From assembly GCF_057098645.1 (NCBI RefSeq), contig NZ_CM169472.1: a stretch of 64,000 bases of DNA. One strand, 5' to 3'. The stretch's first letter is position 1. Every line of letters begins with the position of its first letter. Below are positions 23,994-53,722 of the stretch, in pieces. The position numbers and the translations under genes were made by a program. The notes below the pieces were generated by a model that searched no databases, was not told where the DNA came from, and saw only the letters and a program-made list of their open reading frames with translations.

Positions 23994-24505
23994 AGCAATA
24001 CCTATTAGTTAATTAAATATGTGTTAATTTAGCGTTTATTTAAGGCATAACGCCCTCTATAAATAATCCGCAAAATATCTTCGTAGCGGCACTCGATATT
24101 TTCACATTCCTGTATCAAGTGCTGAAAATCATTTCATCGCTACTTCCAATTCCTTTCTGCATGGTAAGTAGTGAGGACGAAAAGAAGAATATGATAAATA
24201 TTGGTTCGTGGTAATCAGAGAGAGTCGCGACATTTGTGATGTTATTCTTACAACTGTAAGAAGCGCCGGTGATTTACAAGTAAGGGTATGATTACGCTTT
24301 TTAAAGCGTACCATAAAATATAACATATTAAATGATTTGTGATGACACGGGATTATTGCGGTTTACTTTGAGGAATATAAAATGCGAGTTTATAGAACCG
24401 CGAGCGCCAAATAATTTTATGACCACAACCTGTCGTATTGTGGTCATAAAAAATTGTCGGCTGGAGGGAGTTAAATCCTTTACCTCAATATACTGCCTGT
24501 CAGCA

Positions 24506-25433: not shown

Positions 25434-25709
25434 ATGAAAGTAAACTTAATAGTTTTTAGCTTATTTTTATTGGTCTCTATTATGGCATGCAATGTTTTTG
25501 CATTTTCCATTTCTGGTGGTGGAAGTGAGAGGAGCTATAAAGAGACGGAAAAAACATCAGCGATGACGACAACTCACTCTACAAAACTTCAGCCATCACA
25601 GGCAATTTTGTTTAAGATGAGAGAAGATGCGCCACCATTAAACCTCACAGAAGAAACCACGCCCCCTTTTCCGACAAAGGCGAGTTATCTTATTCATCCT
25701 GTGCGATAG
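25434..25709 (+). CDS. ypdI: YpdI small lipoprotein-like protein, 91 aa
   Basis: Signal peptide with lipobox-like MAC; synteny. Confidence 0.8.
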
Positions 25710-25814
25710 CGTCTGTCACATGGTAGACTGGCCCCCTGAATCTCCAGACAACCAGTATCACTTAAATAAGTGATAGTCTTAATACTAGTTTTTAGACTAG
25801 TCATTGGAGAACAG

Positions 25815-26180
25815 ATGATTGATGTCTTAGGGCCGGAGAAACGCAGACGGCGTACCACACAGGAAAAGATCGCAATTGTTCAGCAGAGCTTTGAACCGGG
25901 GATGACGGTCTCCCTCGTTGCCCGGCAACATGGTGTAGCAGCCAGCCAGTTATTTCTCTGGCGTAAGCAATACCAGGAAGGAAGTCTTACTGCTGTGGCC
26001 GCCGGAGAACAGGTTGTTCCTGCCTCTGAACTTGCTGCCGCCATGAAGCAGATTAAAGAACTCCAGCGCCTGCTCGGCAAGAAAACGATGGAAAATGAAC
26101 TCCTCAAAGAAGCCGTTGAATATGGACGGGCAAAAAAGTGGATAGCGCACGCGCCCTTATTGCCCGGGGATGGGGAGTAA
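25815..26180 (+). CDS. insC: IS2 InsC (OrfA) transposase component, 121 aa
   Basis: [52 protein letters not shown]... Confidence 0.92.
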
Positions 26181-27043
26181 GCTTAGTCAGCCGTTGTCTC
26201 CGGGTGTCGCGTGCGCAGTTGCACGTCATTCTCAGACGAACCGATGACTGGATGGATGGCCGCCGCAGTCGTCACACTGATGATACGGATGTGCTTCTCC
26301 GTATACACCATGTTATCGGAGAGCTGCCCACGTATGGTTATCGTCGGGTATGGGCGCTGCTTCGCAGACAGGCAGAACTTGATGGTATGCCTGCGATCAA
26401 TGCCAAACGTGTTTACCGGATCATGCGCCAGAATGCGCTGTTGCTTGAGCGAAAACCTGCTGTACCGCCATCGAAACGGGCACATACAGGCAGAGTGGCC
26501 GTGAAAGAAAGCAATCAGCGATGGTGCTCTGACGGGTTCGAGTTCTGCTGTGATAACGGAGAGAGACTGCGTGTCACGTTCGCGCTGGACTGCTGTGATC
26601 GTGAGGCACTGCACTGGGCGGTGACTACCGGCGGCTTCAACAGTGAAACAGTACAGGACGTCATGCTGGGAGCGGTGGAACGCCGCTTCGGCAACGATCT
26701 TCCGTCGTCTCCAGTGGAGTGGCTGACGGATAATGGTTCATGCTACCGGGCTAATGAAACACGCCAGTTCGCCCGGATGTTGGGACTTGAACCGAAGAAC
26801 ACGGCGGTGCGGAGTCCGGAGAGTAACGGAATAGCAGAGAGCTTCGTGAAAACGATAAAGCGTGACTACATCAGTATCATGCCCAAACCAGACGGGTTAA
26901 CGGCAGCAAAGAACCTTGCAGAGGCGTTCGAGCATTATAACGAATGGCATCCGCATAGTGCGCTGGGTTATCGCTCGCCACGGGAATATCTGCGGCAGCG
27001 GGCTTGTAATGGGTTAAGTGATAACAGATGTCTGGAAATATAG
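26138..27043 (+). CDS. insD: IS2 InsD (OrfB) transposase catalytic component, 301 aa
   Basis: DDE integrase-core ORF overlapping insC in the -1 frame. Confidence 0.92.
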
Positions 27044-27121
27044 GGGCAAATCCACATGGCAGGTGAGCAATCATGTCTGATGCTGATGTGAACACCTGCC
27101 CAAATGAGCCATCCTGACCCA

Positions 27122-27364
27122 CTACCGCCTGCCATACCCCACCATAAAGCGAATCATCAAGCCACAAGCCGGGGCAAGAAACATAAATATCCCCGTCACC
27201 AGTTCATTACCGCCTGTTAACCACATGGTGAAGTAATAAATGAGTGCAGCGAGGATCACCATGCCGAAGAAAGAAGAGACCGCCGATACCACGTTCAGTA
27301 CCTGACCGATGTAGCCGCTTACGCAGACAATACACAGGGCGAGAAACATCCATAAATAAATCAT
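27122..27364 (-). CDS. yfdY: YfdY small membrane protein, 80 aa
   Basis: Two-TMS ORF between IS2 and lpxP; synteny. Confidence 0.8.
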   Translation of the reverse strand: MIYLWMFLALCIVCVSGYIGQVLNVVSAVSSFFGMVILAALIYYFTMWLTGGNELVTGIFMFLAPACGLMIRFMVGYGRR

Positions 27365-27716
27365 AGCTCAACCTCCTGCCGCGCTAAAAAACCTGTAACT
27401 TCAGTCACTTTAATAGTAAGACAATCCTTAACCTCTGGCAATTTTTGCTAAGCATCAATGAAAACAGCATGTTAAATGCAAGACTGTTGTGTACGGAAAA
27501 ATATTTACTTTGCACGATTAATAATCAGTAGCTGAAAGCAGTCAGCGAGTGATAAAGTACAGATACCGCATTCATGCTCCTCGTGGTTATGTCCTGACTA
27601 GTCTTTACACTCTTTACAGGAACCATTGTCGTACATGATGGCCTAATCAATTGAGTGTACCGCTGTCGACATGGAATCTTCTGCGATACAACAATTCGTA
27701 TCTACAGAAGGTAACT

Positions 27717-28637
27717 ATGTTTCCACAATGCAAATTTTCCCGCGAGTTTCTGCATCCTCGCTACTGGCTCACATGGTTTGGGCTTGGTGTACTCTGGCTT
27801 TGGGTACAGCTTCCTTATCCTGTTCTCTGCTTTCTCGGCACGCGTATCGGCGCAATGGCGCGACCATTCCTGAAACGGCGTGAATCTATCGCCCGTAAAA
27901 ATCTGGAACTTTGCTTCCCGCAGCATTCTGCGGAAGAACGCGAGAAGATGATTGCCGAAAACTTTTGTTCACTCGGCATGGCGCTGGTAGAAACCGGCAT
28001 GGCGTGGTTCTGGCCCGACAGTCGCGTACGTAAATGGTTTGATGTTGAAGGGCTGGATAACCTTAAACGCGCACAAATGCAAAATCGCGGCGTAATGGTT
28101 GTCGGCGTCCATTTTATGTCGCTGGAACTGGGCGGCCGCGTGATGGGACTTTGTCAGCCAATGATGGCTACCTATCGTCCACATAATAATCAGCTGATGG
28201 AATGGGTGCAGACCCGTGGTCGCATGCGCTCTAACAAAGCGATGATCGGCAGAAATAATCTGCGCGGCATTGTCAGTGCACTGAAGAAAGGTGAAGCGGT
28301 ATGGTTTGCTCCCGATCAGGATTATGGTCGTAAAGGCAGCTCCTTCGCGCCGTTCTTTGCGGTAGAAAATGTCGCCACAACCAATGGCACCTATGTTCTC
28401 TCCCGTCTCTCTGGCGCAGCCATGTTGACCGTAACGATGGTAAGAAAAGCGGATTACAGCGGATATCGTTTGTTCATCACCCCAGAGATGGAAGGCTACC
28501 CGACAGATGAAAATCAAGCCGCTGCCTATATGAACAAGATTATCGAGAAAGAGATCATGCGCGCACCGGAGCAGTACCTCTGGATCCACCGTCGCTTTAA
28601 AACGCGCCCGGTGGGAGAATCGTCGTTATACATTTAA
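27717..28637 (+). CDS. lpxP: LpxP lipid A palmitoleoyltransferase (cold-induced), 306 aa
   Basis: LpxL/LpxM-family ORF, start taken at MFPQCKFSREFLHPRYWLTW. Confidence 0.9.
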   Translation: MFPQCKFSREFLHPRYWLTWFGLGVLWLWVQLPYPVLCFLGTRIGAMARPFLKRRESIARKNLELCFPQHSAEEREKMIAENFCSLGMALVETGMAWFWPDSRVRKWFDVEGLDNLKRAQMQNRGVMVVGVHFMSLELGGRVMGLCQPMMATYRPHNNQLMEWVQTRGRMRSNKAMIGRNNLRGIVSALKKGEAVWFAPDQDYGRKGSSFAPFFAVENVATTNGTYVLSRLSGAAMLTVTMVRKADYSGYRLFITPEMEGYPTDENQAAAYMNKIIEKEIMRAPEQYLWIHRRFKTRPVGESSLYI

Positions 28638-28668
28638 CAAACTGCTCTGACTCTTTACCTCCTCACAT

Positions 28669-28706
28669 AAGCCATAATAACCTCATGGTTTTTATGGCTT
28701 TTTTCT
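28669..28706 (+). terminator. rho-independent terminator downstream of lpxP
   Basis: AAGCCATAATAACC / GGTTTTTATGGCTT hairpin followed by TTTT. Confidence 0.55.
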
Positions 28707-28992
28707 TAAGGTTTTTTCCTTCGCTGAACATCTAATTATTACCGTCAGAAATTAAACTGTCGCCGATATGAGACACCTGTAAGTTACTAAAAGTAAATAA
28801 GAAAATGCCTCTTGTCTCGTTTCAGTTTTAGGCGTACATTAGCGCCGTCTCGAGCAGTTTAGCTCAGAATTCTGGGGTGATGCCCACGGTAAAATACAGG
28901 ACTTTTAAGGTCGTTTTGCCCGGTGTCAACTCACTGTATCAGGTGTAATGAAGTCATTCAGGCGTAACAGCAATTACGCGGAGAGATGTAAA

Positions 28993-29064
28993 GTGAAATA
29001 TTTCTTTATGGGCATTTCTTTTATGGTCATCGTTTGGGCCGGTACTTTTGCCCTGATGATCTAA
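28993..29064 (+). CDS. ypdK: YpdK small membrane protein (23 aa, GTG start)
   Basis: VKYFFMGISFMVIVWAGTFALMI read directly; matches known K-12 small protein. Confidence 0.7.
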   Translation: MKYFFMGISFMVIVWAGTFALMI

Positions 29065-29081
29065 AAGCAAACTGTGCAATG

Positions 29082-29109
29082 AAAAACAGGAGCCATCAGG
29101 CTCCTGTTT
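29082..29109. terminator. bidirectional terminator hairpin between ypdK and alaC
   Basis: CAGGAGCC-atca-GGCTCCTG flanked by A-run and T-run. Confidence 0.6.
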
Positions 29110-29128
29110 GCATTTCTGAGGTCGGTGT

Positions 29129-30367
29129 TTATTCCGCGTTTTCGTGAATGTGTTTGCTGCTGGCGGGTAGTAAACCGTCGGCACGGAACATCGCTTTAAT
29201 CCCACGAATCGCCTGACGAATACGGTCGCGGTTTTCAATCAGTGCAAAGCGCACATGCGTATCACCATAGTCGCCAAAGCCAATCCCCGGAGAGACACAG
29301 ACCTTCGCTTCGTTAAGCAATTTCTTGGCAAATTCCAGCGAGCCCATGGCAGCATACGGTTCCGGTATTTTCGCCCAGACATACATCGAAGCCTTCGGCA
29401 TTTCGACCATCCAGCCCGCTTCATGCAGCCCTTTAACCAATACATCACGGCGGCGTTTGTACTGTTCGGCAATGTCGCGCACACACTGTTGATCGCCCTC
29501 GAGTGCCGCAATCGCCGCCACCTGCAACGGCGTAAAGGTGCCGTAATCGTGATAGCTTTTAATACGTGCCAGGGCGCTGACCAGCGTTTTGTTGCCAACC
29601 ATAAAGCCGATACGCCAGCCCGCCATGTTGTAGCTTTTCGACAGCGTAAAGAACTCGACCGCCACATCGCGTGCACCTGGCACCTGCATGATTGACGGCG
29701 CTTTCCAACCATCGTAGACGATGTCCGCATAGGCCAGGTCGTGGACCACCAGCACATCGTAGCGTTTCGCCAGCGCCACAACCTTTTCGAAGAACTCCAG
29801 TTCCACGCATTGCGCGGTTGGGTTCGACGGGAAGCCGAGGATCATCATCTTCGGTTTCGGATAACTTTCACGAATGGCGCGCTCCAGTTCGTTGAAGAAA
29901 TCGACACCTTCCACCAGCGGCACTGAGCGTACCTGCGCCCCGGCAATCACCGCGCCATAAATATGAATGGGGTAGCTTGGATTCGGCACCAGCACCGTGT
30001 CACCATGATCCAGCGTCGCCAACATCAGGTGTGCCAGCCCCTCTTTCGAACCAATGGTGACGATGGCTTCTGATTCCGGGTCGATTTCAACGTCGTAGCG
30101 ATCCTGATACCAGCGGGAAATGGCGCGACGTAACCGCGGAATGCCGCGTGAAGTGGAGTAACCATGCGTGTCCGGGCGCTGGGCCACAGTACATAATTTT
30201 TCGACGATATGCGGCGGAGTCGCACCGTCCGGGTTACCCATACTGAAATCGATAATATCTTCGCCGCGCCGACGCGCAGCCATTTTCAGTTCAGCGGTAA
30301 TGTTAAAAACATAGGGCGGGAGACGATCAATGCGCGTAAAGCGACGTTCAGGGCGAGTGTCAGCCAT
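29129..30367 (-). CDS. alaC: AlaC glutamate-pyruvate aminotransferase, 412 aa
   Basis: Class I aminotransferase ORF with PLP-lysine region [12 protein letters not shown]. Confidence 0.92.
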
Positions 30368-30743
30368 AATTTCCTCAGATTAACGTTAGCGCCCGGACCG
30401 TCCGAGCGACGCTGCCACGATGGTGGCTGTTTTGAAAATAGCCTGATTAATTTCTGTCTGTCCAGCGTTTTAGAACATTTTTATTAATGACGTTAAATGA
30501 GGAACTCTGCTTTAAAAACAGGAAATTTATCTGCGCTAACAAGAAAGTTACCACTCATTTTATTAACATAATAATTTCAATAAATTTACTAACCAGAAGT
30601 GCATTATCAAGAGATGCATTGCTAATACACCATTTATCTATCAATCCCCTTTTAAAATTGTGGTTTTTCCTCAAAAACGGCCTGCTGGTCATCAGCCTTC
30701 AGGTTACCTATCATAGAGGTTTAATCCTTATTCAGAGTCACCC

Positions 30744-32441
30744 GTGCACGAAATATTCAACATGCTGCTGGCGGTCTTCGATCGGGCAGCGTTAATGCTT
30801 ATCTGCCTGTTCTTTCTCATCCGTATCCGCCTGTTTCGCGAACTGTTGCACAAGTCGGCACACTCACCGAAAGAGTTGCTCGCCGTTACCGCCATTTTCT
30901 CGCTGTTCGCCCTGTTCAGCACCTGGTCCGGCGTTCCCGTAGAAGGCTCGCTGGTGAACGTACGTATTATCGCGGTGATGTCAGGCGGGATTCTGTTTGG
31001 CCCGTGGGTGGGCATCATTACCGGCGTGATTGCGGGTATTCATCGTTATTTAATTGATATCGGCGGCGTGACGGCGATCCCCTGCTTTATCACCAGCATT
31101 CTGGCGGGTTGTATATCGGGCTGGATCAACCTGAAAATCCCCAAAGCACAGCGCTGGCGCGTCGGTATTCTCGGCGGCATGTTGTGTGAAACGTTGACCA
31201 TGATTCTGGTGATTGTCTGGGCACCAACTACCGCGTTGGGGATCGATATCGTCTCTAAAATCGGGATTCCAATGATCCTCGGCAGCGTCTGTATCGGCTT
31301 TATTGTGCTTCTGGTGCAAAGCGTTGAGGGCGAAAAAGAGGCCAGCGCCGCGCGGCAGGCCAAGTTGGCGCTGGATATCGCCAACAAAACGCTACCTCTG
31401 TTTCGCCATGTCAATAGCGAGTCATTACGCAAGGTCTGCGAAATTATCCGCGATGACATTCACGCCGATGCGGTGGCAATTACCAATACCGATCATGTGC
31501 TGGCCTATGTTGGCGTGGGTGAACATAACTATCAGAATGGCGATGACTTCATTAGCCCGACTACCCGTCAGGCGATGAATTACGGAAAAATCATCATTAA
31601 AAACAATGATGAAGCCCACCGCACACCAGAGATTCATTCCATGCTGGTGATCCCATTGTGGGAGAAAGGCGTTGTGACCGGAACGCTGAAAATTTACTAC
31701 TGCCACGCGCATCAGATAACCTCGTCATTACAGGAAATGGCGGTTGGTCTGTCGCAAATCATCTCCACGCAACTGGAGGTTTCACGCGCCGAGCAGCTAC
31801 GTGAAATGGCAAATAAGGCAGAGCTTCGCGCCCTGCAAAGCAAAATTAATCCCCATTTCCTGTTTAACGCTTTGAACGCTATTTCATCGTCAATCCGTCT
31901 GAATCCGGATACCGCTCGCCAGCTGATCTTTAATCTGTCGCGTTATCTGCGCTATAACATTGAATTAAAAGACGATGAGCAAATCGATATCAAAAAAGAG
32001 CTGTATCAAATTAAAGACTATATTGCCATTGAGCAGGCCCGCTTTGGCGACAAGCTGACGGTTATCTATGATATTGATGAAGAGGTGAATTGCTGCATTC
32101 CCAGCCTGCTGATCCAGCCGTTGGTGGAGAATGCCATTGTCCACGGTATCCAGCCTTGCAAAGGTAAAGGCGTTGTCACCATCAGCGTTGCAGAGTGCGG
32201 CAATCGGGTACGCATTGCGGTGCGGGATACCGGGCACGGCATCGATCCAAAGGTGATTGAGCGGGTCGAAGCGAATGAAATGCCGGGCAATAAAATTGGC
32301 CTGCTGAATGTCCATCATCGCGTGAAGTTATTGTATGGCGAGGGGCTGCATATCCGCCGCCTGGAACCAGGAACGGAAATTGCGTTTTACATTCCTAACC
32401 AACGCACCCCAGTCGCCTCACAGGCTACGTTATTGCTTTGA
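30744..32441 (+). CDS. ypdA: YpdA (PyrS) LytS-family sensor histidine kinase, 565 aa
   Basis: 5TM Lyt domain, GAF-like region, His kinase with [10 protein letters not shown] motif. Confidence 0.92.
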
Positions 32442-32455
32442 GCCGGAGTGATATT

Positions 32456-33190
32456 GTGAAAGTCATCATTGTTGAAGACGAATTCCTGGCACAACAGGAA
32501 CTGAGCTGGCTAATTAAAGAGCACAGCCAGATGGAGATTGTCGGCACCTTTGACGACGGTCTGGACGTGTTGAAGTTTTTGCAGCATAACCGCGTCGACG
32601 CCATTTTTCTGGATATCAATATTCCGTCGCTGGATGGTGTGTTGCTGGCGCAAAACATCAGCCAGTTCGCCCATAAACCGTTTATTGTGTTCATCACCGC
32701 GTGGAAAGAACATGCGGTAGAAGCGTTTGAACTTGAGGCGTTTGACTACATTCTCAAACCGTATCAGGAGTCACGCATTACCGGGATGCTGCAAAAACTG
32801 GAAACGGCCTGGCAGCAACAGCAGACCAGCAGTACGCCTGCCGCGACGGTAACGCGTGAGAATGACACCATTAATCTGGTGAAAGATGAGCGAATAATCG
32901 TCACCCCCATTAACGATATCTATTACGCCGAAGCGCACGAGAAAATGACCTTTGTTTATACGCGGCGTGAATCCTACGTAATGCCGATGAACATTACCGA
33001 ATTTTGCAGCAAACTGCCGCCGTCGCATTTTTTCCGCTGCCATCGCTCATTTTGTGTCAATCTGAACAAAATCCGCGAGATCGAACCGTGGTTTAATAAC
33101 ACCTACATTCTGCGACTGAAAGATCTGGATTTTGAAGTGCCGGTCAGCCGCAGCAAAGTTAAAGAATTCCGCCAGTTAATGCATCTTTAA
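32456..33190 (+). CDS. ypdB: YpdB (PyrR) LytTR-family response regulator, 244 aa
   Basis: Receiver plus LytTR domain; GTG start VKVIIVEDEF. Confidence 0.9.
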   Translation: MKVIIVEDEFLAQQELSWLIKEHSQMEIVGTFDDGLDVLKFLQHNRVDAIFLDINIPSLDGVLLAQNISQFAHKPFIVFITAWKEHAVEAFELEAFDYILKPYQESRITGMLQKLETAWQQQQTSSTPAATVTRENDTINLVKDERIIVTPINDIYYAEAHEKMTFVYTRRESYVMPMNITEFCSKLPPSHFFRCHRSFCVNLNKIREIEPWFNNTYILRLKDLDFEVPVSRSKVKEFRQLMHL

Positions 33191-33202
33191 TCGGGAACTT
33201 TC

Positions 33203-34060
33203 ATGAAAGCACCAGGCTTGCCCGCCGATCAACAATTTTTCGCCGATCTGTTCAGCGGCCTGGTGCTTAACCCGCAACTACTGGGGCGGGTCTGGTTTGC
33301 CAGCCAGCCTGCCTCGTTGCCGGTGGGCAGTTTATGTATTGATTTTCCCCGTCTGGATATCGTGCTGCGCGGCGAATACGGCAATCTGCTGGAAGCAAAG
33401 CAGCAACGTTTGGTGGAAGGAGAAATGCTGTTTATTCCGGCGCGCGCGGCTAATTTACCGGTCAACAACAAACCGGTGATGCTGTTAAGCCTGGTGTTCG
33501 CTCCGACCTGGCTTGGGTTATCGTTTTACGATAGCCGCACCACGTCGTTGTTGCATCCTGCTCGCCAGATCCAGCTTCCCAGCCTGCAACGCGGTGAAGG
33601 TGAAGCGATGCTTACCGCCCTCACCCATCTTAGCCGTTCGCCGCTGGAGCAAAATATCATTCAGCCGCTGGTGTTAAGTTTGCTGCATCTTTGCCGTAAC
33701 GTGGTGAATATGCCGCCGGGCAATTCGCAGCCGCGCGGCAATTTTCTCTATCACAGCATTTGTAACTGGGTTCAGGATAATTATGCCCAGCCGCTCACCC
33801 GCGAGAGCGTGGCGCAGTTTTTTAATATCACGCCCAATCATCTGTCAAAACTGTTTGCTCAGCATGGAACGATGCGTTTTATCGAGTATGTGCGTTGGGT
33901 GCGAATGGCGAAGGCGAGGATGATTTTGCAGAAATATCATCTGTCGATTCATGAAGTGGCACAGCGTTGCGGTTTTCCGGATAGCGACTATTTTTGTCGC
34001 GTTTTCCGGCGTCAGTTTGGTCTGACGCCGGGAGAGTACAGCGCCCGCTTTCAGGGCTAA
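33203..34060 (+). CDS. ypdC: YpdC AraC-family transcriptional regulator, 285 aa
   Basis: C-terminal AraC HTH; synteny. Confidence 0.9.
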   Translation: MKAPGLPADQQFFADLFSGLVLNPQLLGRVWFASQPASLPVGSLCIDFPRLDIVLRGEYGNLLEAKQQRLVEGEMLFIPARAANLPVNNKPVMLLSLVFAPTWLGLSFYDSRTTSLLHPARQIQLPSLQRGEGEAMLTALTHLSRSPLEQNIIQPLVLSLLHLCRNVVNMPPGNSQPRGNFLYHSICNWVQDNYAQPLTRESVAQFFNITPNHLSKLFAQHGTMRFIEYVRWVRMAKARMILQKYHLSIHEVAQRCGFPDSDYFCRVFRRQFGLTPGEYSARFQG

Positions 34061-34062
34061 CG

Positions 34063-36558
34063 TCAGAAGGTTAATTCCGTTTCCAGCAGCGTCAGGATAC
34101 TTTGTGCATCTTGCGCGGCAAACAACGACTGGCGGAAGTTTTTATTCACCAGTTTACGCGCCAGCTGCGAGAAGACTTTCACATGATTCATCCCTTCGTT
34201 AGCACCCAGCGTCAGCATGATCACCAGTTCGACTTCGCCCATTTCTGACTGCCAGTCAACCGGTTTCGCCAGCCGGGCAATGCTGATACTGGAATGACGG
34301 ATCCACTGAGATTTGGTGTGCGGGATCGCCACGCCAAAACCAACGCCAGTGGTGACAATCTCTTCCCGCTGCCAGACATCCTCTTCCAGCTCGAACGGAT
34401 GTTCAGTGCGCCCGTTAACGCCGAGGTTACCGCACAGGAACTGGATCGCCTGCTCTTTATTGCTAAAGGCCTGATCAACGAAGATATTCTCCAGCGCCAG
34501 CAGCGGGCGAACGTCTTCTTCCGGCGTAAAGGCGGTGAGTAACGCTTCAATTTCCTGCGCGCTGCGACATTCACACGCCTGACGTGCCAGTTCCCGACAC
34601 GCCTCGCTATCCAGTTGACGAAGCTGGCTTTTCACCGCCGGAATGCGCGGGCTACTCATACTCAGCTCATCCAGGCCCAGCCCAAGCAGTAGCGGCAGAT
34701 AACGGCTTTCACCGCCCAGTTCACCGCAAATGCCTACCCATTTGCCCCGCTGATGCGCAGTGGTAACTATTTGCTGCAACATGCGCAGGAACGATGGCGT
34801 AATCGGGTTATACAGCGGCGATACGCGCGGGTTATTACGATCGACCGCATAAAGATACTGGGTCATATCGTTGGAGCCGATACTGAAGAAATCGACCTCA
34901 TCGCAGAAGTGATCGATGATGTAGCACACCGACGGCACTTCCACCATGATACCCAGCGTAATCGTCTCTGCATGACGCAGGCCATCGCGCTTAAGCTCAA
35001 CGATCGCTTTTTGGATCTCGCCCTTCACCCATAAGATCTGATCGAGGCTGTGGACCATCGGGATCATCAACTGGGCGTTGCCGAAACTGGCGGCGCGCAA
35101 AATGGCCCGCAGTTGAGTGCGGAACAGGTCAGCAAATTCCGGGTAAATACGTACCGCGCGATAGCCGAGGAACGGGTTCTCTTCCTGGGGAATATTCAGA
35201 TAAGGAATGCTTTTATCGCCTCCGATGTCCATTGTGCGGAAGATAATCGGCTTGTCGCCCGCTGCCAGTAGCACCTGCTGGTAGGCTTCAAATTGCTCCT
35301 GCTCGTCCGGCGCGCTGTCGCGATCCATATAGAGCATTTCGGTACGGAACAGCCCGACGCCTTCCGCGCCGTTGGCAAACGCGCCAGGCGCTTCCAGAGC
35401 GGTGCCAATATTCGCCGCGATATCAATACGCTTGTTATCACGGGAATAAGCCAGCTGCGCGGCAGCCTGCGCCTGTTGTTTTTGGCGTTTATCCGCCAGC
35501 GTCTGCGCGACCTGATAATAACCGCTCACCGCGTCATTCGGGTTAATCGCCAGCACGCCGCACTGGGCGTCAAGCACTGCAGGTTGCCCGGCATAACGGG
35601 CAATCGCATCCAGCGGCAGGCCGCTCAGTACCGGGATCGCCGAGGCGCGGGCCAGAATCAGGGTATGCGAGGTGCGCCCGGTTTTCTCCAGAATCATGCC
35701 CGCAAGATTTTTTAAATCCAGGCTTAAAAACTGGCTTGGGGTTAAATCCTCGGCCACCAGAATAGTCGGTTTTTCCAGCACCAGATTGTTGCGCGGCTTC
35801 AGTTCCGGCCAGGTGATATGCAGTAACTGTTCGCTGATATCGCGAATGTCGCTAACACGTTCGCGCAGATAATCACTGGCAGAAGCAGAAAGTTTGGCGC
35901 AAACCTGCTCCATATTGCTGATGATCGCCGCCCCCAGCCCCTGATGCTGTTCTGTCATCAGGCGACGGATATTGCCTGCAAATTCATCATCCTGAATCAG
36001 CGACAAATGGGCGCTGAGGATAGTTTTGCTTTCGCCGTCACGCTCACGCAATTGCTGGTTCAGTTGCTCGGCAAGCGTTGCCAGGCTGTGCTCCAGCCGG
36101 GTGGAATCTTGCGCACTGGCGGGGATTGCCCGATAACTGTCGAGGCTGTCGCTTTGTAACAGGGTCAGCGTACCCACGCCGACGCCGCTTGCCAGCACAT
36201 TGCCGTACAGTAAATCCGGGTTAAGGCGGCTTAATGAACGCGGCAGCGGATGCGCCGTCAGTTCTGCCTGCGTAGGCTGAACGCTGTCGCTGTCGATAAA
36301 GCGCACCTGGATGTACTCTTCCAGCACGCGCCGCGCCTGCTCTTCATCGCTGCCGCTAATGTTCAGGCTGCAACTGTCATTAAATAGGGTGCCGGTGCCA
36401 ATCAGCGCCAGCGAGCTTTTGGCATCGGCCTTTGCGTTCTGGCGATGGTTAATAAAAGTGATTTCGCTTTGCCACTGGCTGGACTGTTCTTTAAGTTCCC
36501 ACGCCGGACGAGCATGTAGACCGTTAGGCAAAGGACAGAGAAATTGAATCGTTAACAT
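34063..36558 (-). CDS. fryA: FryA PTS multiphosphoryl transfer protein (HPr-EI-IIA fusion), 831 aa
   Basis: EI-like PEP-utilising domain and IIA(Fru) domain; synteny. Confidence 0.92.
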   Translation of the reverse strand: MLTIQFLCPLPNGLHARPAWELKEQSSQWQSEITFINHRQNAKADAKSSLALIGTGTLFNDSCSLNISGSDEEQARRVLEEYIQVRFIDSDSVQPTQAELTAHPLPRSLSRLNPDLLYGNVLASGVGVGTLTLLQSDSLDSYRAIPASAQDSTRLEHSLATLAEQLNQQLRERDGESKTILSAHLSLIQDDEFAGNIRRLMTEQHQGLGAAIISNMEQVCAKLSASASDYLRERVSDIRDISEQLLHITWPELKPRNNLVLEKPTILVAEDLTPSQFLSLDLKNLAGMILEKTGRTSHTLILARASAIPVLSGLPLDAIARYAGQPAVLDAQCGVLAINPNDAVSGYYQVAQTLADKRQKQQAQAAAQLAYSRDNKRIDIAANIGTALEAPGAFANGAEGVGLFRTEMLYMDRDSAPDEQEQFEAYQQVLLAAGDKPIIFRTMDIGGDKSIPYLNIPQEENPFLGYRAVRIYPEFADLFRTQLRAILRAASFGNAQLMIPMVHSLDQILWVKGEIQKAIVELKRDGLRHAETITLGIMVEVPSVCYIIDHFCDEVDFFSIGSNDMTQYLYAVDRNNPRVSPLYNPITPSFLRMLQQIVTTAHQRGKWVGICGELGGESRYLPLLLGLGLDELSMSSPRIPAVKSQLRQLDSEACRELARQACECRSAQEIEALLTAFTPEEDVRPLLALENIFVDQAFSNKEQAIQFLCGNLGVNGRTEHPFELEEDVWQREEIVTTGVGFGVAIPHTKSQWIRHSSISIARLAKPVDWQSEMGEVELVIMLTLGANEGMNHVKVFSQLARKLVNKNFRQSLFAAQDAQSILTLLETELTF

Positions 36559-36582
36559 AACCGCTCCGGGTTAATCAGGAGA

Positions 36583-37620
36583 TCATCTGAAATCCGTCAG
36601 TTGAACAACCGTCTCACGCGTAAGACGTTGAATAAGGGCAGATAAAAGTTGCTCCATCTGCAAAATGTCGCGGCAATCGGCAATCGACGCGGCGCAATGT
36701 CCGTGGCGGGTGGCAGACCCCATCACCACTGTGGGTACGCCAGTACCGGTTAAGTGCACCGCTCCACCGTCCGTGCCGCCGTTACTGAACATATCTGCCT
36801 GCAACGGCACGCCAATTTCTGCCGCCACGGTTTCGACCCAGGCGGTAAGTTTTGGCGGCGCAATCAGCGACTTGTCGCTTAACACCAGCATCGGCCCGTT
36901 ACCAATCTGGCGATGGTTAGCCGCGCCATAATCAAAGTTTTTCGCCCAGCAGGCGGTATCAAGCACAATGGCGACGTCCGGCGACACCGCGCGGGTGGCA
37001 GTTTGCCCGCCGCGTAATCCCACCTCTTCGCTGGAACTTGCCACCAGCCACACTTCCGCAGGCAGTTCGGCGTCGTGCAGCTCACGTAGTAACGTCACCA
37101 GCAGATAGCAACCGAGGCGGTCATCAAAGGCTTTCCCCATCACTCGCTGGTGGGGGAGAACCTGAAAAGTGGTATCGAACGTGACGCGATCGCCTGGACG
37201 AATTCCCGCCTGCATCACTTCGTCATACGAGCGCGCGCCAATATCCACGCGCATGGTGCTGACGTCATTCCCCTGCCGGTCGCCGTCAAGCAGGCCTGGA
37301 ATTTTGCACTCTTCACGGGTGGTGATGCGCACCGGCTGCAGCTGGCGGGCAGCCATGCGCACGTTGCCAACCGGCAGCACATCAATTGCGCCTTCGCGGG
37401 AGATACTGCGCACCATAAATCCAACTTCGTCCATATGCGCACAGATCATCACTTTCGGACCTGTCGATTCATTGAGGCGGATCAGCACCGATCCCAGCCC
37501 ATCAAATCGCACTTCTTTTTGCAGGCGATCCGCTTCTTCCAGCAGGATCTGCCGCACTTCCTGTTCCGAGGAGGCGATCGCATCTGCCTCGCTCAACGCT
37601 TTCAATAGCGATAAATCCAT
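36583..37620 (-). CDS. ypdE: YpdE aminopeptidase (M42 family), 345 aa
   Basis: Synteny and size. Confidence 0.9.
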
Positions 37621-38705
37621 TATGCCTCTCCCGTGAGCAACACTGTTTTCGGCATGGCGTAGAGCACTTCTGCGCCTTGCGGGGTGACCAGCACAACATC
37701 CTCGATGCGCACACCCCCTTGCCCTGGAAAATAAATCCCCGGCTCCACGGTCAGTAACATGCCTGGCTGTAGCGTCGTGGTATCCCGCGGTGAAAAGCGC
37801 GGATCTTCGTGTACTTCAATGCCAATAGCATGACCGGTGTTGTGACCAAAATAGTCGCCAAATCCTGCCTCGGTAATCACCCGACGCGCGGCGTCGTCAA
37901 CCTGCTGGCAGCGCACGCCGGGGCGAATTGCAGAGATTGCTGCGAGCTGTGCCTGCAAAACAATCTGATAGACGTTAAACAGCGGATGAGATTCGGCGCT
38001 CACCCCTTCGCCATTCACCAGCAAGGTGCGCGTCATATCAGAGCAGTAGCCCTGATACAGCGCACCGAAATCGAGAGTGACAAACTCGCCCGCTGCAACA
38101 ATCTTGTCGCTGGCTTTGCCGTGCGGCAGCGCCCCACGCCAGCCACTGGCGACAATGGTGTCAAAAGCGGCTTTTTCTGCGCCCTGCTGGCGCATAAACC
38201 ACTCCAGTTCAGCGGCTATCTCGCGCTCGCTCATCCCCGCCTGAATAAAGCGGCGAATATGCTCTGCACCGCGATCGGCAATCCCACAGGCAAGGCGGAT
38301 TTTCTCCACCTCCTCTGGCGTTTTGATTTGCCGCAGCACATCCGGCGTGGCGCTAACCAGTTTCGCATTGAGTTCAGACTGCCAGCGGTGCGCGGTTTCC
38401 CAACTCACCTGCTGGCCTTCAAAACCGAGCGTTTGCAACTGCTCATCGGCAATGATTTGCCTGGCGATGGTTGTAAGCGTGTGCGTCGCGTCAAGCAAAT
38501 GCAGCTGGTAACCTTGCGTGCGGGCTTCTACATCCGCGTAATAGCGCGAGTCCACCAGAATGTGCGCACTTTCACGGCTAATCAGCACATAGCCTGATCC
38601 GGTGGAGATCCCCAGATGCGGCTGTTTGTTCTGCCGTGAGGAGAGAAGCACCGCATCCAGTTGTTGCGCCTTAAGCCAGTCGCGCAGCGAAGCGAGTAAT
38701 GTCAT
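37620..38705 (-). CDS. ypdF: YpdF Xaa-Pro aminopeptidase (M24 family), 361 aa
   Basis: M24 peptidase signature [13 protein letters not shown]. Confidence 0.9.
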
Positions 38706-38719
38706 CTGGATTTTCCTTC

Positions 38720-39967
38720 TTACAGGCTATCGATTAACAATTTGCCTTTACGGAACATCATCAGACGCAGGAACACCACCATCAGCGCAGTTATGACTGC
38801 CCCCAGCGCGATCCCCGCCATATAGACGCCCAGGTTAGTGACCAGCGGCCATGCCCAGATAGCGGATTCCGGGAACCATTGCACTGCGCCCAGCCAGACA
38901 GCGGCGGTTGAGCCGACAATCGCGCCGACCATATACGACGGAATGGCGGTGATGGGGCTTTCCAGCGCAAACGGAATCGCACCCTCACTGATCCCCATAA
39001 AGGCAAGGAACATCGCGGTCTTACCCTGCGGATAAAGTTGTGCGCTGAACAGGCGTTTGCCGGTTAAACGACGGTCGATAATGGTCGCCAGACCCAGACC
39101 AATCGGCGGAATAACGATAGCGATAGAACGTGCGGTGACCGGTAATACGTGGTCAGTGGTAAAGCTGAAGGCAACAAAACCTGCGGCTTTGTTGATCGGG
39201 CCACCAAGGTCGATTGCTGTCGCCGCGGCGATCCCCATTGCGTACATCAGCGCGCCCTTCTCACCTGCGGCAGTCAGCACGGTACGGATACCGCCGTTGA
39301 TCCAGCCACCAAAGGGGGTGATGACGTAGTACATCGCCAGCATGACAAAAATAGCGGAAAGAATCGGTAGCAAAAATGTGGTTTTGAACGCTAACAGGAA
39401 ATCCGGTAACTGGATTTTCTGGTTCATCCATTTCACAAGGTAACCGGCAACGATAGAAATAATCAGCGCACCAATGAAGGTGGACGGCACCGGCGAAGAG
39501 GTCGCCCATTGCATAGTGCTGGGATCGAAGTTCAGCAGTTGCGTCGGCTGGGTAGACATCAAGCCGCCGATAAAACCAGCCGGGAACGCCAGTTTGCCAC
39601 CGATAGAGTTCGCCACAAATGCAGCAAACATCGGAATGGCAAAACCAAACAACACGCCGCCGAAGGACTGCGACAACCAGGCAAATTTAAGTAAGGAGAG
39701 GTCGAAACCGGAGAATTTCCCGCTATTAAGAGCATCCATGATGCCGATCTCAGCAGGAATTTTAAGCCAGCTATAAGCAATCAACTGGCTGAAAGCGAGG
39801 ATCACACCGCCCATAATTAAGGTCGGCACCATGCGTGAAATCCCTGACATCACATGCTGCGGGAGTTCACCCCAGAAGCTGGTTTTAGAGGCCTGCGGAT
39901 TCTTAACTGCCGCTGCCGCACCGGATGCGCCAGGCACAACGGTTGCACTGCGTTTTTTAATGGCCAT
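38720..39967 (-). CDS. fryC: FryC PTS fructose-like IIC component, 415 aa
   Basis: Polytopic IIC ORF; synteny. Confidence 0.9.
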
Positions 39968-39988
39968 AACAATTATCCCTGTCGAATA

Positions 39989-40315
39989 TTACTGTTGTTC
40001 AGAGGCAATCATCTCTTCGATTTCTTTGATGATGCCCGCAGCGTTTTTAATTGCGTCCTGCAAAGTGATTTCATAAACGTCGTGTGATTCGAAACGTTCG
40101 TTATCTTCCGGGGTAACTGCCACGGAGTGGATGATGATGGTCGCTTCGGCGATATCCTGCGCCGTCAGGCGATTCTGGATACCGTCCGCGCCCTGGGTTT
40201 CAATTTTCACTTCATAACCGGCTTCTACCGCCGCTTCTTCCAGCGCCTGAGCGGCCATAAAAGTGTGAGCCAGGCCCATTGGGCAGGCACATAAGGCAAT
40301 CAGTTTCTTACTCAT
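39989..40315 (-). CDS. fryB: FryB PTS fructose-like IIB component, 108 aa
   Basis: MSKKLIALCACPMGLAHTF... with active-site Cys; listed ORF has 17-aa upstream extension. Confidence 0.88.
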   Translation of the reverse strand: MSKKLIALCACPMGLAHTFMAAQALEEAAVEAGYEVKIETQGADGIQNRLTAQDIAEATIIIHSVAVTPEDNERFESHDVYEITLQDAIKNAAGIIKEIEEMIASEQQ

Positions 40316-40534
40316 CGTTAATTCCTCGTTCAGTGATAGTTGACGAGTGAAATTATGAACGTGCAAAACAAATCGCCGTTACCAGACAAATAATGCATTT
40401 ACTGGAGAATTAATCCCGCTGTACGGAAGTGTGACGCAGGTCGGCCTGGTGAGGAGGACACAAAGAAAAGTTGAATTAACTGTATGATTTAAAAGATTAT
40501 CGGGAGAGTTACCTCCCGATATAACAGGAAGGAT

Positions 40535-41500
40535 TTACAGAATGTGACCTAAGGTCTGGCGTAAATGTGCACCGGAACCGAGAAGACCCGGATTGTCATG
40601 GACGATGAGATACACCGGAATATCATGGACATATTCTTTAAAGCGCCCTTTATCTTCAAATGCGGCACGGAAACCAGAGGCTTTGAAGAACTCAAGGAAG
40701 CGCGGCACGATACCGCCCGCAATAAACACGCCGCCAAATGTCCCGAGATTGAGCGCCAGATTGCCGCCAAAACGGCCCATAATGACGCAAAACAGCGACA
40801 ACGCACGGCGGCAATCGGTGCAGCTGTCAGCCAGCGCGCGTTCGGTAATATCTTTTGGCTTGAGATTTTCTGGCAGGCGGTTGTCGGCTTTAACAATTGC
40901 GCGATACAAATTCACAAGTCCTGGGCCAGAAAGCACACGTTCCGCCGAAACATGACCAATTTCCGCACGCAATATTTCGAGGATAATGGCCTCTTCTTCA
41001 CTATTCGGCGCAAAATCAACGTGACCGCCTTCGCCTGGCAAGCTTACCCAACGCTTATCGACATGGACCAGATGCGCAACCCCAAGCCCCGTTCCGGCAC
41101 CGTAAACCGCAATAGGCTTACCTTCTATCGGCTCTGCGCCACCAAACTGAATCAGATGCTCTTTTTTCAGCATCGGAATCGCCATCGATACAGCGGTAAA
41201 ATCGTTAATAATTTCCAGATGGCTAAAACCGAGATTCTTTTTCATTTCGGCAATTGAGAACGCCCAGGTATGGTTGGTCATTGCCACCCAGTCACCGGTA
41301 ATTGGGCAAGCGATGGCAATACAGCCGTCTTTCACCTCGACCTTATGTTCTTCAAGATAAACGCGAATGACCGCTTCGAGGCTTGGGTAATCAAGCCCTG
41401 AATAGGTCTTAGCCTGCGAGATTTCACCACTGGCAATATCACACAGAGCAAGACGTGCGTTGGTGCCGCCCACATCACCGACTAATGCATACTTTGTCAT
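40535..41500 (-). CDS. glk: glucokinase, 321 aa
   Basis: [21 protein letters not shown]... ROK/glucokinase N-terminus. Confidence 0.93.
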
Positions 41501-41703
41501 TCTTCAACTGCTCCGCTAAAGTCAAAATAATTCTTTCTCACACTGTAAATACCTGGGGGCATAACAACAACGCCGGAAAGGCAGGCTCCCTGTAAATATC
41601 GATCTGGGTCACACAATTACTTTATCGTTTCAGCACCAATTGCAGCGATGCCTTTTTGCAAGCTGGGCAAACTAAGTATCTGACCCCGCATAAGGAATAG
41701 AAC

Positions 41704-42960
41704 ATGCTCCATCCGCGAGCCAGAACCATGTTGTTATTATCGCTCCCCGCTGTGGCAATTGGGATTGCGTCCAGTCTTATTCTGATTGTGGTGATGAAAA
41801 TCGCCTCGGTATTACAGAATTTGCTCTGGCAACGACTGCCGGGAACTCTGGGGATAGCCCAGGATTCACCTTTCTGGATCATCGGTGTATTAACGCTAAC
41901 GGGTATTGCGGTGGGGTTGGTTATCCGTTTCAGCCAGGGTCATGCCGGACCAGACCCCGCCAGTGAACCGCTGATCGGCGCACCGGTTCCGCCCTCTGCG
42001 CTACCAGGACTTATCGTAGCATTAATTCTCGGTCTTGCTGGCGGCGTCAGCCTGGGGCCGGAACATCCGATCATGACCGTCAATATCGCCCTTGCCGTCG
42101 CCATTGGCGCTCGTCTGTTACCGCGCGTCAACCGAATGGAGTGGACTATTTTAGCCTCTGCCGGAACCATCGGCGCACTGTTTGGCACACCTGTTGCGGC
42201 GGCGTTGATATTTTCGCAAACCTTAAATGGCAGTAGTGAAGTTCCGCTATGGGATCGTCTCTTTGCGCCGTTAATGGCGGCAGCAGCTGGTGCACTTACT
42301 ACCGGATTATTTTTCCATCCTCATTTTTCACTGCCCATTGCGCATTACGGACAGATGGAAATGACCGATATTCTCAGCGGTGCAATTGTCGCGGCGATTG
42401 CCATCGCAGCAGGGATGGTCGCCGTATGGTGCTTACCACGATTGCACGCGATGATGCATCAAATGAAAAATCCGGTGCTCGTGCTGGGTATTGGCGGATT
42501 TATTCTCGGTATTCTGGGGGTTATTGGTGGGCCGGTTTCGCTGTTTAAAGGGCTGGATGAGATGCAGCAGATGGTGGCAAATCAGGCTTTCAGCACCAGC
42601 GATTACTTTTTGCTGGCGGTGATTAAACTTACCGCCCTGGTCGTTGCTGCCGCCAGTGGCTTTCGCGGTGGACGAATTTTCCCGGCAGTGTTCGTCGGCG
42701 TGGCATTAGGGTTGATGCTGCATGAGCACGTCCCCGCCGTTCCAGCGGCAATAACCGTTTCCTGCGCTATTCTCGGCATCGTGCTGGTGGTAACACGCGA
42801 TGGCTGGTTAAGCCTTTTTATGGCGGCAGTCGTTGTACCCAATACCACATTGCTACCGCTGCTCTGTATCGTCATGCTTCCGGCATGGCTGTTATTAGCA
42901 GGTAAGCCGATGATGATGGTCAATCGTCCGAAGCAACAGCCACCCAACGATAACGTTTAG
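41704..42960 (+). CDS. yfeO: YfeO ClC-family ion channel/transporter-like protein, 418 aa
   Basis: Polytopic membrane ORF; synteny. Confidence 0.9.
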
Positions 42961-43074
42961 CAAAAAATGCTCTCCTTTATGATTTAAGAGTTATGGCGAT
43001 GATACGGGGCTTTACCTCCCCGTAATATTGCGTTAACAGGCCGCTGACGGCTTCGATCGTGAAGGAGAATAACA

Positions 43075-43401
43075 ATGTTCAGGTCACTGTTTCTGGCGGC
43101 CGCCCTGATGGCATTTACCCCGCTTGCGGCAAACGCAGGCGAAATCACCCTACTGCCATCAATCAAATTACAAATTGGCGATCGCGATCATTACGGTAAT
43201 TACTGGGACGGTGGTCACTGGCGAGATCGTGATTACTGGCATCGCAATTATGAGTGGCGCAAAAACCGCTGGTGGCGTCATGATAATGGCTACCACCGTG
43301 GCTGGGATAAGCGTAAAGCGTATGAGCGTGGCTATCGTGAAGGCTGGCGCGATCGTGACGATCATCGCGGAAAAGGCCGCGGACATGGGCACCGCCATTA
43401 A
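43075..43401 (+). CDS. ypeC: YpeC periplasmic protein (DUF2502), 108 aa
   Basis: Signal peptide, W/R/H/D-rich repeats; synteny. Confidence 0.85.
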
Positions 43402-43423
43402 ACACATTTGCCAATGGAGCACA

Positions 43424-43536
<113 letters not shown>

Positions 43537-43541
43537 TTCAA

Positions 43542-44789
<1,248 letters not shown>

Positions 44790-44792
44790 CTA

Positions 44793-44814
44793 AAACATAG
44801 CCTTTGCTATGTTT
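44793..44814. promoter_or_regulatory. MntR operator palindrome (AAACATAGCCTTTGCTATGTTT) in mntH promoter
   Basis: Perfect inverted repeat 13 bp upstream of mntH start codon; matches known MntR box. Confidence 0.75.
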
Positions 44815-45115
44815 CATGCTATGCCAAACGAGAATGATTATCAAATTCATTTAAATGGGTTGTGGTGATTTCTCTGATAGACCAGGATGATGACTACGAA
44901 AAGATTGATGACTTGAATGTTATGGTTATGTTTAATGTTAGCACATTTACATAACTTTCAGCTTCCATACACAACATAGCAGAAATGTATGACAGCTCAC
45001 TATTTTTGAAGCTTGTCACAGGACGTCATTATAGTGTGTGTCAGATCTCGTTTTCCTTAACCATGTTACATAGAATGTGCACGGAAATTTAACCTGCCTC
45101 ATATTTGGAGCAAAT

Positions 45116-46318
45116 ATGGACCGCGTCCTTCATTTTGTACTGGCACTTGCCGTTGTTGCGATTCTCGCACTGCTGGTAAGCAGCGACCGCAAAAAAATTC
45201 GTATCCGTTATGTTATTCAACTGCTTGTTATCGAAGTGTTACTGGCGTGGTTCTTCCTGAACTCCGACGTTGGTTTAGGCTTCGTGAAAGGCTTCTCCGA
45301 AATGTTCGAAAAACTGCTCGGATTTGCCAACGAAGGGACTAACTTCGTCTTTGGTAGCATGAATGATCAAGGCCTGGCATTCTTCTTCCTGAAAGTGCTG
45401 TGCCCAATCGTCTTTATCTCTGCACTGATCGGTATTCTCCAGCACATTCGCGTGTTGCCGGTAATTATCCGCGCAATTGGTTTCCTGCTCTCCAAAGTCA
45501 ACGGTATGGGCAAACTGGAATCCTTTAACGCCGTCAGCTCCCTGATTCTGGGTCAGTCTGAAAACTTTATTGCCTATAAAGACATCCTCGGCAAAATCTC
45601 CCGTAATCGTATGTACACCATGGCAGCAACGGCGATGTCCACCGTGTCGATGTCCATCGTTGGTGCATACATGACCATGCTGGAGCCGAAATATGTCGTT
45701 GCGGCGCTGGTACTGAACATGTTCAGCACCTTTATCGTGCTGTCGCTGATCAACCCTTACCGTGTTGATGCCAGTGAAGAAAACATTCAGATGTCCAACC
45801 TGCACGAAGGTCAGAGCTTCTTCGAAATGCTGGGTGAATACATTCTGGCAGGTTTCAAAGTTGCCATTATCGTTGCCGCAATGCTGATCGGCTTTATCGC
45901 CCTGATCGCCGCGCTGAACGCACTGTTTGCCACCGTGACTGGCTGGTTTGGCTACAGCATCTCCTTCCAGGGCATCCTGGGCTACATCTTCTATCCGATT
46001 GCATGGGTGATGGGTGTTCCTTCCAGTGAAGCACTGCAAGTGGGCAGTATCATGGCGACCAAACTGGTTTCCAACGAGTTCGTTGCGATGATGGATCTGC
46101 AGAAAATTGCTTCCACGCTCTCTCCGCGTGCTGAAGGCATCATCTCTGTGTTCCTGGTTTCCTTCGCTAACTTCTCTTCAATCGGGATTATCGCAGGTGC
46201 AGTTAAGGGCCTGAATGAAGAGCAAGGTAACGTGGTTTCTCGCTTCGGTCTGAAACTGGTTTACGGCTCTACCCTGGTGAGTGTGCTGTCTGCGTCAATC
46301 GCAGCACTGGTGCTGTAA
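45116..46318 (+). CDS. nupC: NupC nucleoside:H+ symporter, 400 aa
   Basis: CNT-family ORF starting [14 protein letters not shown]. Confidence 0.92.
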
Positions 46319-46329
46319 GACCATACATA

Positions 46330-46360
46330 AAAAAGCCGGGGATAATTCCCCGGCTTTTTT
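46330..46360. terminator. bidirectional rho-independent terminator between nupC and pdeA
   Basis: AAAAA-GCCGGGGA-taat-TCCCCGGC-TTTTTT. Confidence 0.75.
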
Positions 46361-46367
46361 ACGCCTG

Positions 46368-48557: not shown

Positions 48558-48764
48558 GAGTACACTACTCTCACTGATCGGGGTTTTCAGGCACACAAAT
48601 AATAAGTTTATTCGCATCGCGAAGCAAACAGGGGCCATCCTGTTGCCGATTTTTCATCCAATGATGCTTTCACCAGGCGGCGCTAACCCGGACGTAGACT
48701 GTATTACAAAAGCGGCAAAAAGCAGAGACAAAAAACCCCCGCTTTGCAGCGAGGGTTGGAAATT

Positions 48765-48840
<76 letters not shown>

Positions 48841-48879
48841 ACGATGCGTTTACGTACCAAATTTGCTGGGTGCAAAATT

Positions 48880-48955
<76 letters not shown>

Positions 48956-49190
48956 GTCACGTAAAGCTTGTCGAGTTGACGGGCGGCATCATATGAATTC
49001 CGCCCGAATGTGTCAACGGCAAATTGCAGCGTGTAGTTTCAATCGCTGAAAAATCAGGCAAATGAACAATTTTGGAAAACCGCTCGCATTCAGTAGTTAT
49101 TCATGTCACGGTTTCCTGTAAAGTGGTGCTATAAAATGAACTACTAATAGACCCACATACATTCAGGGAATTGTTATGTTCAAGGAGAGG

Positions 49191-49535
49191 ATGACGCCAG
49201 ATGAACTTGCCAGACTGACCGGCTATAGCCGCCAGACCATTAATAAATGGGTACGCAAGGAAGGCTGGACGACGTCACCAAAACCAGGCGTCCAGGGTGG
49301 CAAAGCCCGACTGGTTCACGTCAATGAACAGGTTCGTGAATATATTCGTAATGCTGAACGTCCAGAAGGTCAGGGAGAAGCGCCTGCCCTTTCTGGTGAT
49401 GCGCCGCTTGAAGTATTGCTGGTGACACTGGCGAAAGAGATGACGCCAGTTGAACAAAAACAGTTTACATCCTTGCTTCTGCGGGAAGGGATTATCGGAT
49501 TGTTACAACGCTTAGGGATTCGCGATAGCAAATAA
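49191..49535 (+). CDS. yfeC: YfeC DNA-binding protein, 114 aa
   Basis: HTH N-terminus; paralogous tandem with yfeD. Confidence 0.85.
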   Translation: MTPDELARLTGYSRQTINKWVRKEGWTTSPKPGVQGGKARLVHVNEQVREYIRNAERPEGQGEAPALSGDAPLEVLLVTLAKEMTPVEQKQFTSLLLREGIIGLLQRLGIRDSK

Positions 49536-49536
49536 T

Positions 49537-49929
49537 ATGAAAAGATTACGCAATAAAATGACCACCGAAGAACTGGCTGAATGCCTCGGTGTGGCTAAAC
49601 AAACAGTTAACCGTTGGATCAGAGAAAAAGGCTGGAAAACGGAAAAATTTCCCGGCGTGAAAGGCGGTCGTGCCAGACTTATTCTGGTCGATACGCAAGT
49701 TTGCGAGTTTATTCAGAACACGCCAGCCTTCCATAACACACCGATGCTTCTGGAAGCCGAAGAACCCCTTGCCGAATACGCACCGGGGATTCGCACTCCT
49801 GCTTATCGGCAAATCATAAGCGCAATAGACAACATGACTCACAGTGAGCAGGAAAAAGTTGCGCAATTTTTGTCACGCGAAGGAATTCGTAATTTCCTTG
49901 CTCGTCTCGACATAGATGAATCAGCTTGA
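49537..49929 (+). CDS. yfeD: YfeD DNA-binding protein, 130 aa
   Basis: Paralog of yfeC with the same TTEELAECLGVAKQTVNRWIREKGW HTH. Confidence 0.85.
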   Translation: MKRLRNKMTTEELAECLGVAKQTVNRWIREKGWKTEKFPGVKGGRARLILVDTQVCEFIQNTPAFHNTPMLLEAEEPLAEYAPGIRTPAYRQIISAIDNMTHSEQEKVAQFLSREGIRNFLARLDIDESA

Positions 49930-49968
49930 CATCCTCCACGCCCTGAATGACGAGGATCCCTGCTACGT

Positions 49969-51177: not shown

Positions 51178-51184
51178 AGGCCAA

Positions 51185-51615: not shown

Positions 51616-51676
51616 GTGGAAAACCGCGCCTTATATCCCCGCCCTGAAGGACGGGGTTTTACGGCGCACCGGATAA

Positions 51677-53718: not shown

Positions 53719-53722
53719 CTTC

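Follow-up and report, generated by a model that had tools for sequence, protein, structure and literature searches.

A complete IS2 element between the convergent genes ypdI and yfdY in an Escherichia coli strain of O145:H28-like background

The window, which is the whole 64,000-nucleotide stretch of DNA analysed here, carries a complete 1,331-bp IS2 element (positions 25724..27054, + strand) in the short spacer between ypdI and yfdY. With high confidence, this is a bona fide and apparently functional IS2 of the IS3 family (IS2 group), which entered the site by normal copy-out/paste-in transposition, recently and in one strain, and which is most probably a passenger without selective effect. 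The element itself is already known; the site is new, and the insertion there is without evident consequence.

Both borders of the element are exact. The left terminus (TAGACTGGCC...) begins at 25724 and the right terminus (...GGGGCAAATCCA) ends at 27054, each of them having a single exact match in the 64-kb window against a shuffle expectation of 0.00, and the canonical IS2 termini are read as TAGACTGGCCCCCTGAATC... from 25724 and ...ATATAGGGGCAAATCCA to 27054. Compared with IS2A of E. coli K-12 MG1655 (NC_000913.3 381260-382590), 1,327 of the 1,331 nucleotides are identical and there are no indels. The four substitutions, at IS positions 32, 274, 606 and 900, are all silent at the protein level, where InsC (121 aa) and InsD (301 aa) do not differ from their K-12 counterparts at any residue. 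A copy with 100% identity is present in strain FDAARGOS_943, copies with 99.9% identity are very numerous in other E. coli chromosomes and plasmids, and at least one near-full-length IS2 is found in 4,058 of 5,426 complete E. coli genomes.

The terminal inverted repeats are imperfect, as defined for IS2 (PMC3299598, PMC3219604), with the left one starting 5'-TA(GACTGG) and the right one finishing (AATC)CA-3'. The left inverted repeat, IRL (25724..25765, +), is 42 bp long and begins with TA, a length and a terminus which are those described for IS2 (PMC3299598, PMC3219604), while the right inverted repeat, IRR (27014..27054, +), with which it forms a pair, is 41 bp long and ends in CA-3'. One of the four substitutions (A→G relative to K-12 IS2A at IS position 32, window 25755) falls in the transposase-binding part of IRL; the G is shared with the 100%-identical copy of FDAARGOS_943 and is therefore a circulating variant.

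Inside IRL and just beyond it, at 25763..25779 on the + strand, are a docking site for OrfA (TAAATAA, 25763-25769) and P_IRL, a weak internal promoter of the extended -10 type (TGATAGTCT, 25771-25779). In IS2, P_IRL has been described as a weak extended -10 promoter with TGAT... at bp 48-51 that is repressed by OrfA, whose operator covers bp 39-48 (PMC3299598), and the segment TTAAATAAGTGATAGTCT (25762-25779, IS positions 39-56) matches the published operator and promoter. The presence of both sites is thus established by sequence, and their function in this copy is presumed from identity to the known IS2. They are followed by insC (orfA; 25815..26180, +), which encodes a 121-aa protein with an HTH_Tnp_1 domain (Pfam E=1.8e-19) identical to K-12 InsC1, and by insD (orfB; 26138..27043, +), which encodes a 301-aa protein with HTH_21, rve and rve_3 domains (the DDE integrase core; Pfam E=1e-18) identical to K-12 InsD1. 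The two genes overlap in the architecture typical of IS2 and the IS3 family, where an A6G window (AAAAAAG, 26132..26138, +) directs programmed -1 frameshifting from orfA into orfB (PMC3219604, PMC3299598), and a -1 slip at this window yields an uninterrupted OrfAB of 409 aa.

Every defining feature that can be checked in the sequence is present, and the element is IS2 itself, not a relative of it. The initial annotation had described the IS2 as complete, comprising insC, insD and the two ends, a description borne out by the exact termini, the 1,327 identical nucleotides and the Pfam domains, and it had named a failure of the ends to match the IS2 termini as the observation that would overturn it, whereas both ends match exactly. 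The identical proteins and intact ends suggest that the copy is apparently functional and may be active and competent for transposition at present. K-12 IS2A agrees with it in length, termini, InsC and InsD, the A6G window, the P_IRL/OrfA site and a 5-bp target duplication; it differs by the four substitutions and by its chromosomal site, as it interrupts yaiX whereas the copy studied here is intergenic.

IS2 is bordered on both sides by a perfect CATGG, the left copy at 25719..25723 and the right copy at 27055..27059, with IS/flank junctions that read GCGTCTGTCACATGGTAGACTGGCCCCC and GGGGCAAATCCACATGGCAGGTGAGCAA. The IS-free allele of E. coli O145:H28 RM12581 has colinear flanks with 3 mismatches in 6.6 kb and contains a single CATGG, so that the repeat is a true duplication and no chance repeat, and a simple insertion is proven. 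The length of 5 bp is the one expected of IS2 and is shared by the duplications of other copies, namely ATTAC for K-12 IS2A, CTGGT at another locus compared (L004) and GGAGT for the copy of strain ZF34. The CATGG repeat had been recognised in the initial annotation, which also proposed the comparison with IS-free alleles that proved decisive here. Its interval, 25720-27059, ends correctly at the last base of the right repeat and starts one base inside the left CATGG, the duplication beginning at 25719 and IS2 at 25724.

The element is located in a spacer which is 76 bp long in the empty allele and on which two intact genes converge. To the left is ypdI (25434..25709, +), a colanic acid biosynthesis lipoprotein gene identified from its ORF, the reference annotation and 100% nucleotide identity. 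Its stop codon ends at 25709, leaving 9 nt to the duplication, which begins at the tenth base as had been noted before, and 14 nt to IS2. To the right is yfdY (27122..27364, -), a DUF2545 gene (PF10810, E=3e-42; reference annotation) whose stop codon, at 27122-27124, is 67 nt from the right end of IS2, in agreement with the earlier estimate of about 70 bp. The next gene, lpxP (27717..28637, +; coordinates mapped from the IS-free reference annotation), has its start codon 662 nt past the right end of IS2, with the whole of yfdY in between. IS2 therefore lies downstream (3') of both convergent genes, and the earlier placement of the insertion upstream of yfdY and lpxP has to be corrected accordingly. 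Structurally, the insertion changes only one thing: transcripts of ypdI now enter IS2 14 nt past the stop codon, in the sense orientation relative to the transposase genes; polarity of ypdI is not an issue, as no co-oriented gene follows it.

The possibility that deserves most attention besides a neutral insertion is a regulatory one, in which a fusion promoter built on the -35 of IRR, or transcription from P_IRL or from ypdI reading through IS2, would run antisense through yfdY and/or into lpxP and change expression there, for example by altering cold-induced lipid A palmitoleoylation. This is considered very unlikely. It has a mechanistic basis in the IS2 minicircle junction, where an outward -35 in IRR and a Pribnow box (TAGACT) at the TA-starting tip of IRL combine into a strong promoter, with a spacer of exactly 17 bp which is given by the 1-bp spacer of the junction (PMC3219604, PMC3299598). 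By this published rule the outward -35 of the present copy is TGGAAA (27033..27038, +), and the IRR end that carries it does face yfdY and lpxP (PMC3219604). Moreover, fusion promoters formed by IS2 have been documented for ampC (Jaurin & Normark 1983), acrEF and neoR (PMC9330008), involving the same element with the same IRR end facing the genes, and a terminator scan found no intrinsic-terminator-like site between insD and lpxP.

An IS-derived fusion promoter, however, works only if the flank supplies a suitably spaced -10 (PMC9330008), and the junction promoter of IS2 strictly requires 17 bp (PMC3299598). The flank hexamers at spacers of 15-19 bp from the IRR -35 are ACATGG, CATGGC, ATGGCA, TGGCAG and GGCAGG, which match TATAAT at 0-2 of 6 positions (2, 0 and 2 for CATGGC, ATGGCA and TGGCAG, respectively), and none of them has both A2 and T6. 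The flank thus offers no -10 at 16-18 bp (17 bp for IS2), and no co-oriented gene lies directly downstream. In the ampC, acrEF and neoR cases, in contrast, a -10 at optimal spacing is situated directly upstream of the activated gene. A generic σ70 consensus scan was likewise blank at both junctions, with 3 promoter-like sites in total against a shuffle expectation of 3.2; the sites near the insertion are confined to the divergent yfdY/lpxP spacer, where those of yfdY (27441-27413, -) and lpxP (27666-27695, +) are both untouched. A -10-like hexamer, AATCAT at 27069, was also considered and was set aside, having no acceptable -35 upstream. A hybrid promoter at the right junction was consequently rejected, as there is no usable -10 at 15-19 bp and the first gene, yfdY, is on the opposite strand. 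IS911 and IS3 form a comparable minicircle-junction promoter, transient and strong, from an IRR -35 and an IRL -10 (PMC9330008, PMC3299598), and IS2 follows the same logic; it is unlike them in its TA-ending IRL, 1-bp junction spacer and 5-bp duplication, so the parallel is limited to the outward -35.

With respect to read-through, P_IRL is described as a weak promoter that OrfA represses (PMC3299598), and the 662 bp between IS2 and lpxP contain a gene transcribed in the opposite direction. Low-level transcription from P_IRL, or from ypdI through IS2, may still proceed antisense to yfdY. A more specific scenario, in which outward transcription from the right end would extend as yfdY antisense RNA to the control region of lpxP and alter its cold-shock induction as an adaptive regulatory mutation, is judged even less likely than the regulatory possibility as a whole; if it were true, lipid A palmitoleoylation would be changed in this O145:H28-like strain via lpxP and the insertion would be no passenger. 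The earlier suggestion of an outward hybrid promoter was accordingly right in its choice of end, since IRR carries an outward -35, and its extension to altered expression of the neighbours is not upheld, the flank having no -10 to go with it.

Loss of function at the target is equally little indicated. An Rfam search of the IS-free allele gave no family at the spacer (its match elsewhere was a spurious plastid one, E=0.41), and the predicted fold of the target was no better than shuffles on either strand (z = -1.27 and -0.73). Directly to the right of the insertion point is an 8-bp inverted repeat (GGCAGGTG...CACCTGCC, 27058-27104) with a 31-nt loop and no T-tract, which is not a canonical terminator. 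On the yfdY side the stem has survived whole, its first two bases being provided by the right copy of CATGG, and it is now 1.3 kb further from ypdI. The loss of a terminator, an sRNA or a structure at the target was thus rejected in view of the absence of a terminator-like site, the absence of an Rfam family and the insignificant folds, and the insertion leaves coding sequences, promoters, known RNAs and recognisable terminators uninterrupted.

The distribution of the insertion was surveyed in complete RefSeq E. coli genomes only, using 600-bp queries with the left or the right IS/flank junction at their centre and a 600-bp empty-site query reconstructed by deleting IS2 and one CATGG. Each junction was found in 0 of 5,426 complete E. 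coli genomes, no genome covering both halves of a query, while the empty site is 100% identical in many O145:H28 genomes and is present at a coverage of at least 80% in 5,400 of the 5,426. Over the right flank (27060-47000) and on to the end of the window (47001-64000), the sequence is colinear with genomes of the O145:H28 lineage and shows 100% identity to them. Relatives that cannot be distinguished over 37 kb lack the insertion, which is hence younger than that split, and among complete genomes it is judged to be recent and private to one strain with an O145:H28-like background; draft assemblies of sister isolates may carry it as well. The initial reading of a simple and relatively recent transposition agrees well with the single-CATGG empty allele, the absence of the junctions from the 5,426 genomes and the identical flanks. 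An origin in Shigella or another IS-rich background was ruled out as an explanation, the flanks being 100% identical to O145:H28-lineage genomes. Some IS2 hits reach up to 27 bp into the left flank, and they were considered as possible signs of target-site similarity or of an extended element. The resemblance is a short gapped chance likeness (TCCTGTG..CGATA) at a single unrelated site and has no parallel in the K-12 flank.

The absence of the junctions from all 5,426 genomes is also what would be expected if a repeated IS2 had been misplaced by the assembly between ypdI and yfdY while the real chromosome has an empty site, and IS copies are a classic source of misassembly. A misjoin, however, would hardly be expected to leave a perfect 5-bp repeat of exactly the bases that the empty allele contains once, and here both IS2 ends are complete to the last base within flanks that are otherwise colinear, which makes an artefact of this kind extremely improbable. 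An ancestral insertion lost elsewhere by precise excision can practically be dismissed, as it would require many independent precise excisions to leave the empty site in 5,400 of 5,426 genomes from every lineage, among them relatives whose flanks are 100% identical, and as this IS2 has identical copies elsewhere and an undecayed duplication.

Other IS2 copies are known from the same chromosomal neighbourhood. E. coli ZF31 and ZF34 (NZ_CP047461.1), which are from swine, carry a complete 1,331-bp IS2 in the same orientation, likewise intergenic and with a 5-bp duplication (GGAGT), which occupies positions 2243-3573 of the ZF34 locus (L008). Its insertion point, 1.25 kb to the left of the present site (corresponding to window 24467-24471), separates frc from the 3' end of yfdX. 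The element differs from the copy studied here at 3 positions, and the strain background is unrelated, the flanks being about 98% identical; the insertion is thus an independent event. IS2 is also found about 6 kb to the left in strains 2015C-3121, STEC2018-553, 2012EL-2448 and SCU-204. An IS2 hotspot was considered in view of six records with a same-orientation IS2 within about 6 kb, which is no more than a rough copy-number expectation, and no such claim is made.

Close relatives of the O145:H28 lineage have 0-3 IS2-like places per chromosome after the flank match is subtracted, and in C325, Z1323HEC0422 and Z1323HEC0399 the flank match is the only one. The lineage is therefore not in an IS2 expansion. 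The donor of the present copy may have been a plasmid or one of the very few chromosomal copies.

Taken as a normal transposition, the insertion can be accommodated by the published biochemistry of IS2 (PMC3299598, PMC3219604). OrfAB produced by -1 frameshifting would have cleaved IRR and joined it beside IRL to give a figure-of-eight, which would then have been converted into a minicircle through host replication. The promoter at the minicircle junction would have raised the level of transposase, after which both IS2 ends would have attacked the target with a 5-bp stagger, whose repair would leave the CATGG repeats. The resulting insertion is probably selectively neutral.

Several other features of the window were noted. 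Positions 1-7338 (the boundary is approximate) belong to a lambdoid prophage, or to what remains of one, whose end adjoins dsdC (7433-8374, -), with ORFs encoding RecT/Bet (2386-3171), YqaJ/Exo (3168-3848), Ead/Ea22 (4800-5570) and a DUF551 protein (5410-6642). A scan of these four ORFs revealed no integrase domain, there is no tRNA at the prophage boundary, and no complete E. coli genome covers at least 80% of window 1-8500, the best ones covering about 65-70% at 97-98% identity. Apart from this prophage end, the window is 100% colinear with O145:H28. A 402-aa ORF (49969-51177, -) contains HTH_OrfB_IS605, OrfB_IS605 and Cas12f1-like TNB domains, which identify a TnpB/InsQ-type RNA-guided nuclease gene, and it is kept in place in O145:H28 relatives. 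The tRNA clusters at 48765-48955 (-; two tRNA-Ala(GGC)) and 53401-53798 (+; three tRNA-Val(TAC) and one tRNA-Lys(TTT)) correspond to the ordinary E. coli arrangement.

Few bacterial insertion sequences are as well characterised as IS2, and the present copy is a standard one, so that the finding is of low importance in itself. It provides a negative example, in that an IS near lpxP need not affect lpxP, since an effect is made unlikely by the geometry and by the missing -10. The junctions, found in none of 5,426 complete E. coli genomes, constitute a strain marker for typing and tracking within the O145:H28-like lineage, and the insertion shows recent IS2 activity in a lineage whose close relatives contain very few copies (0-3 per chromosome).
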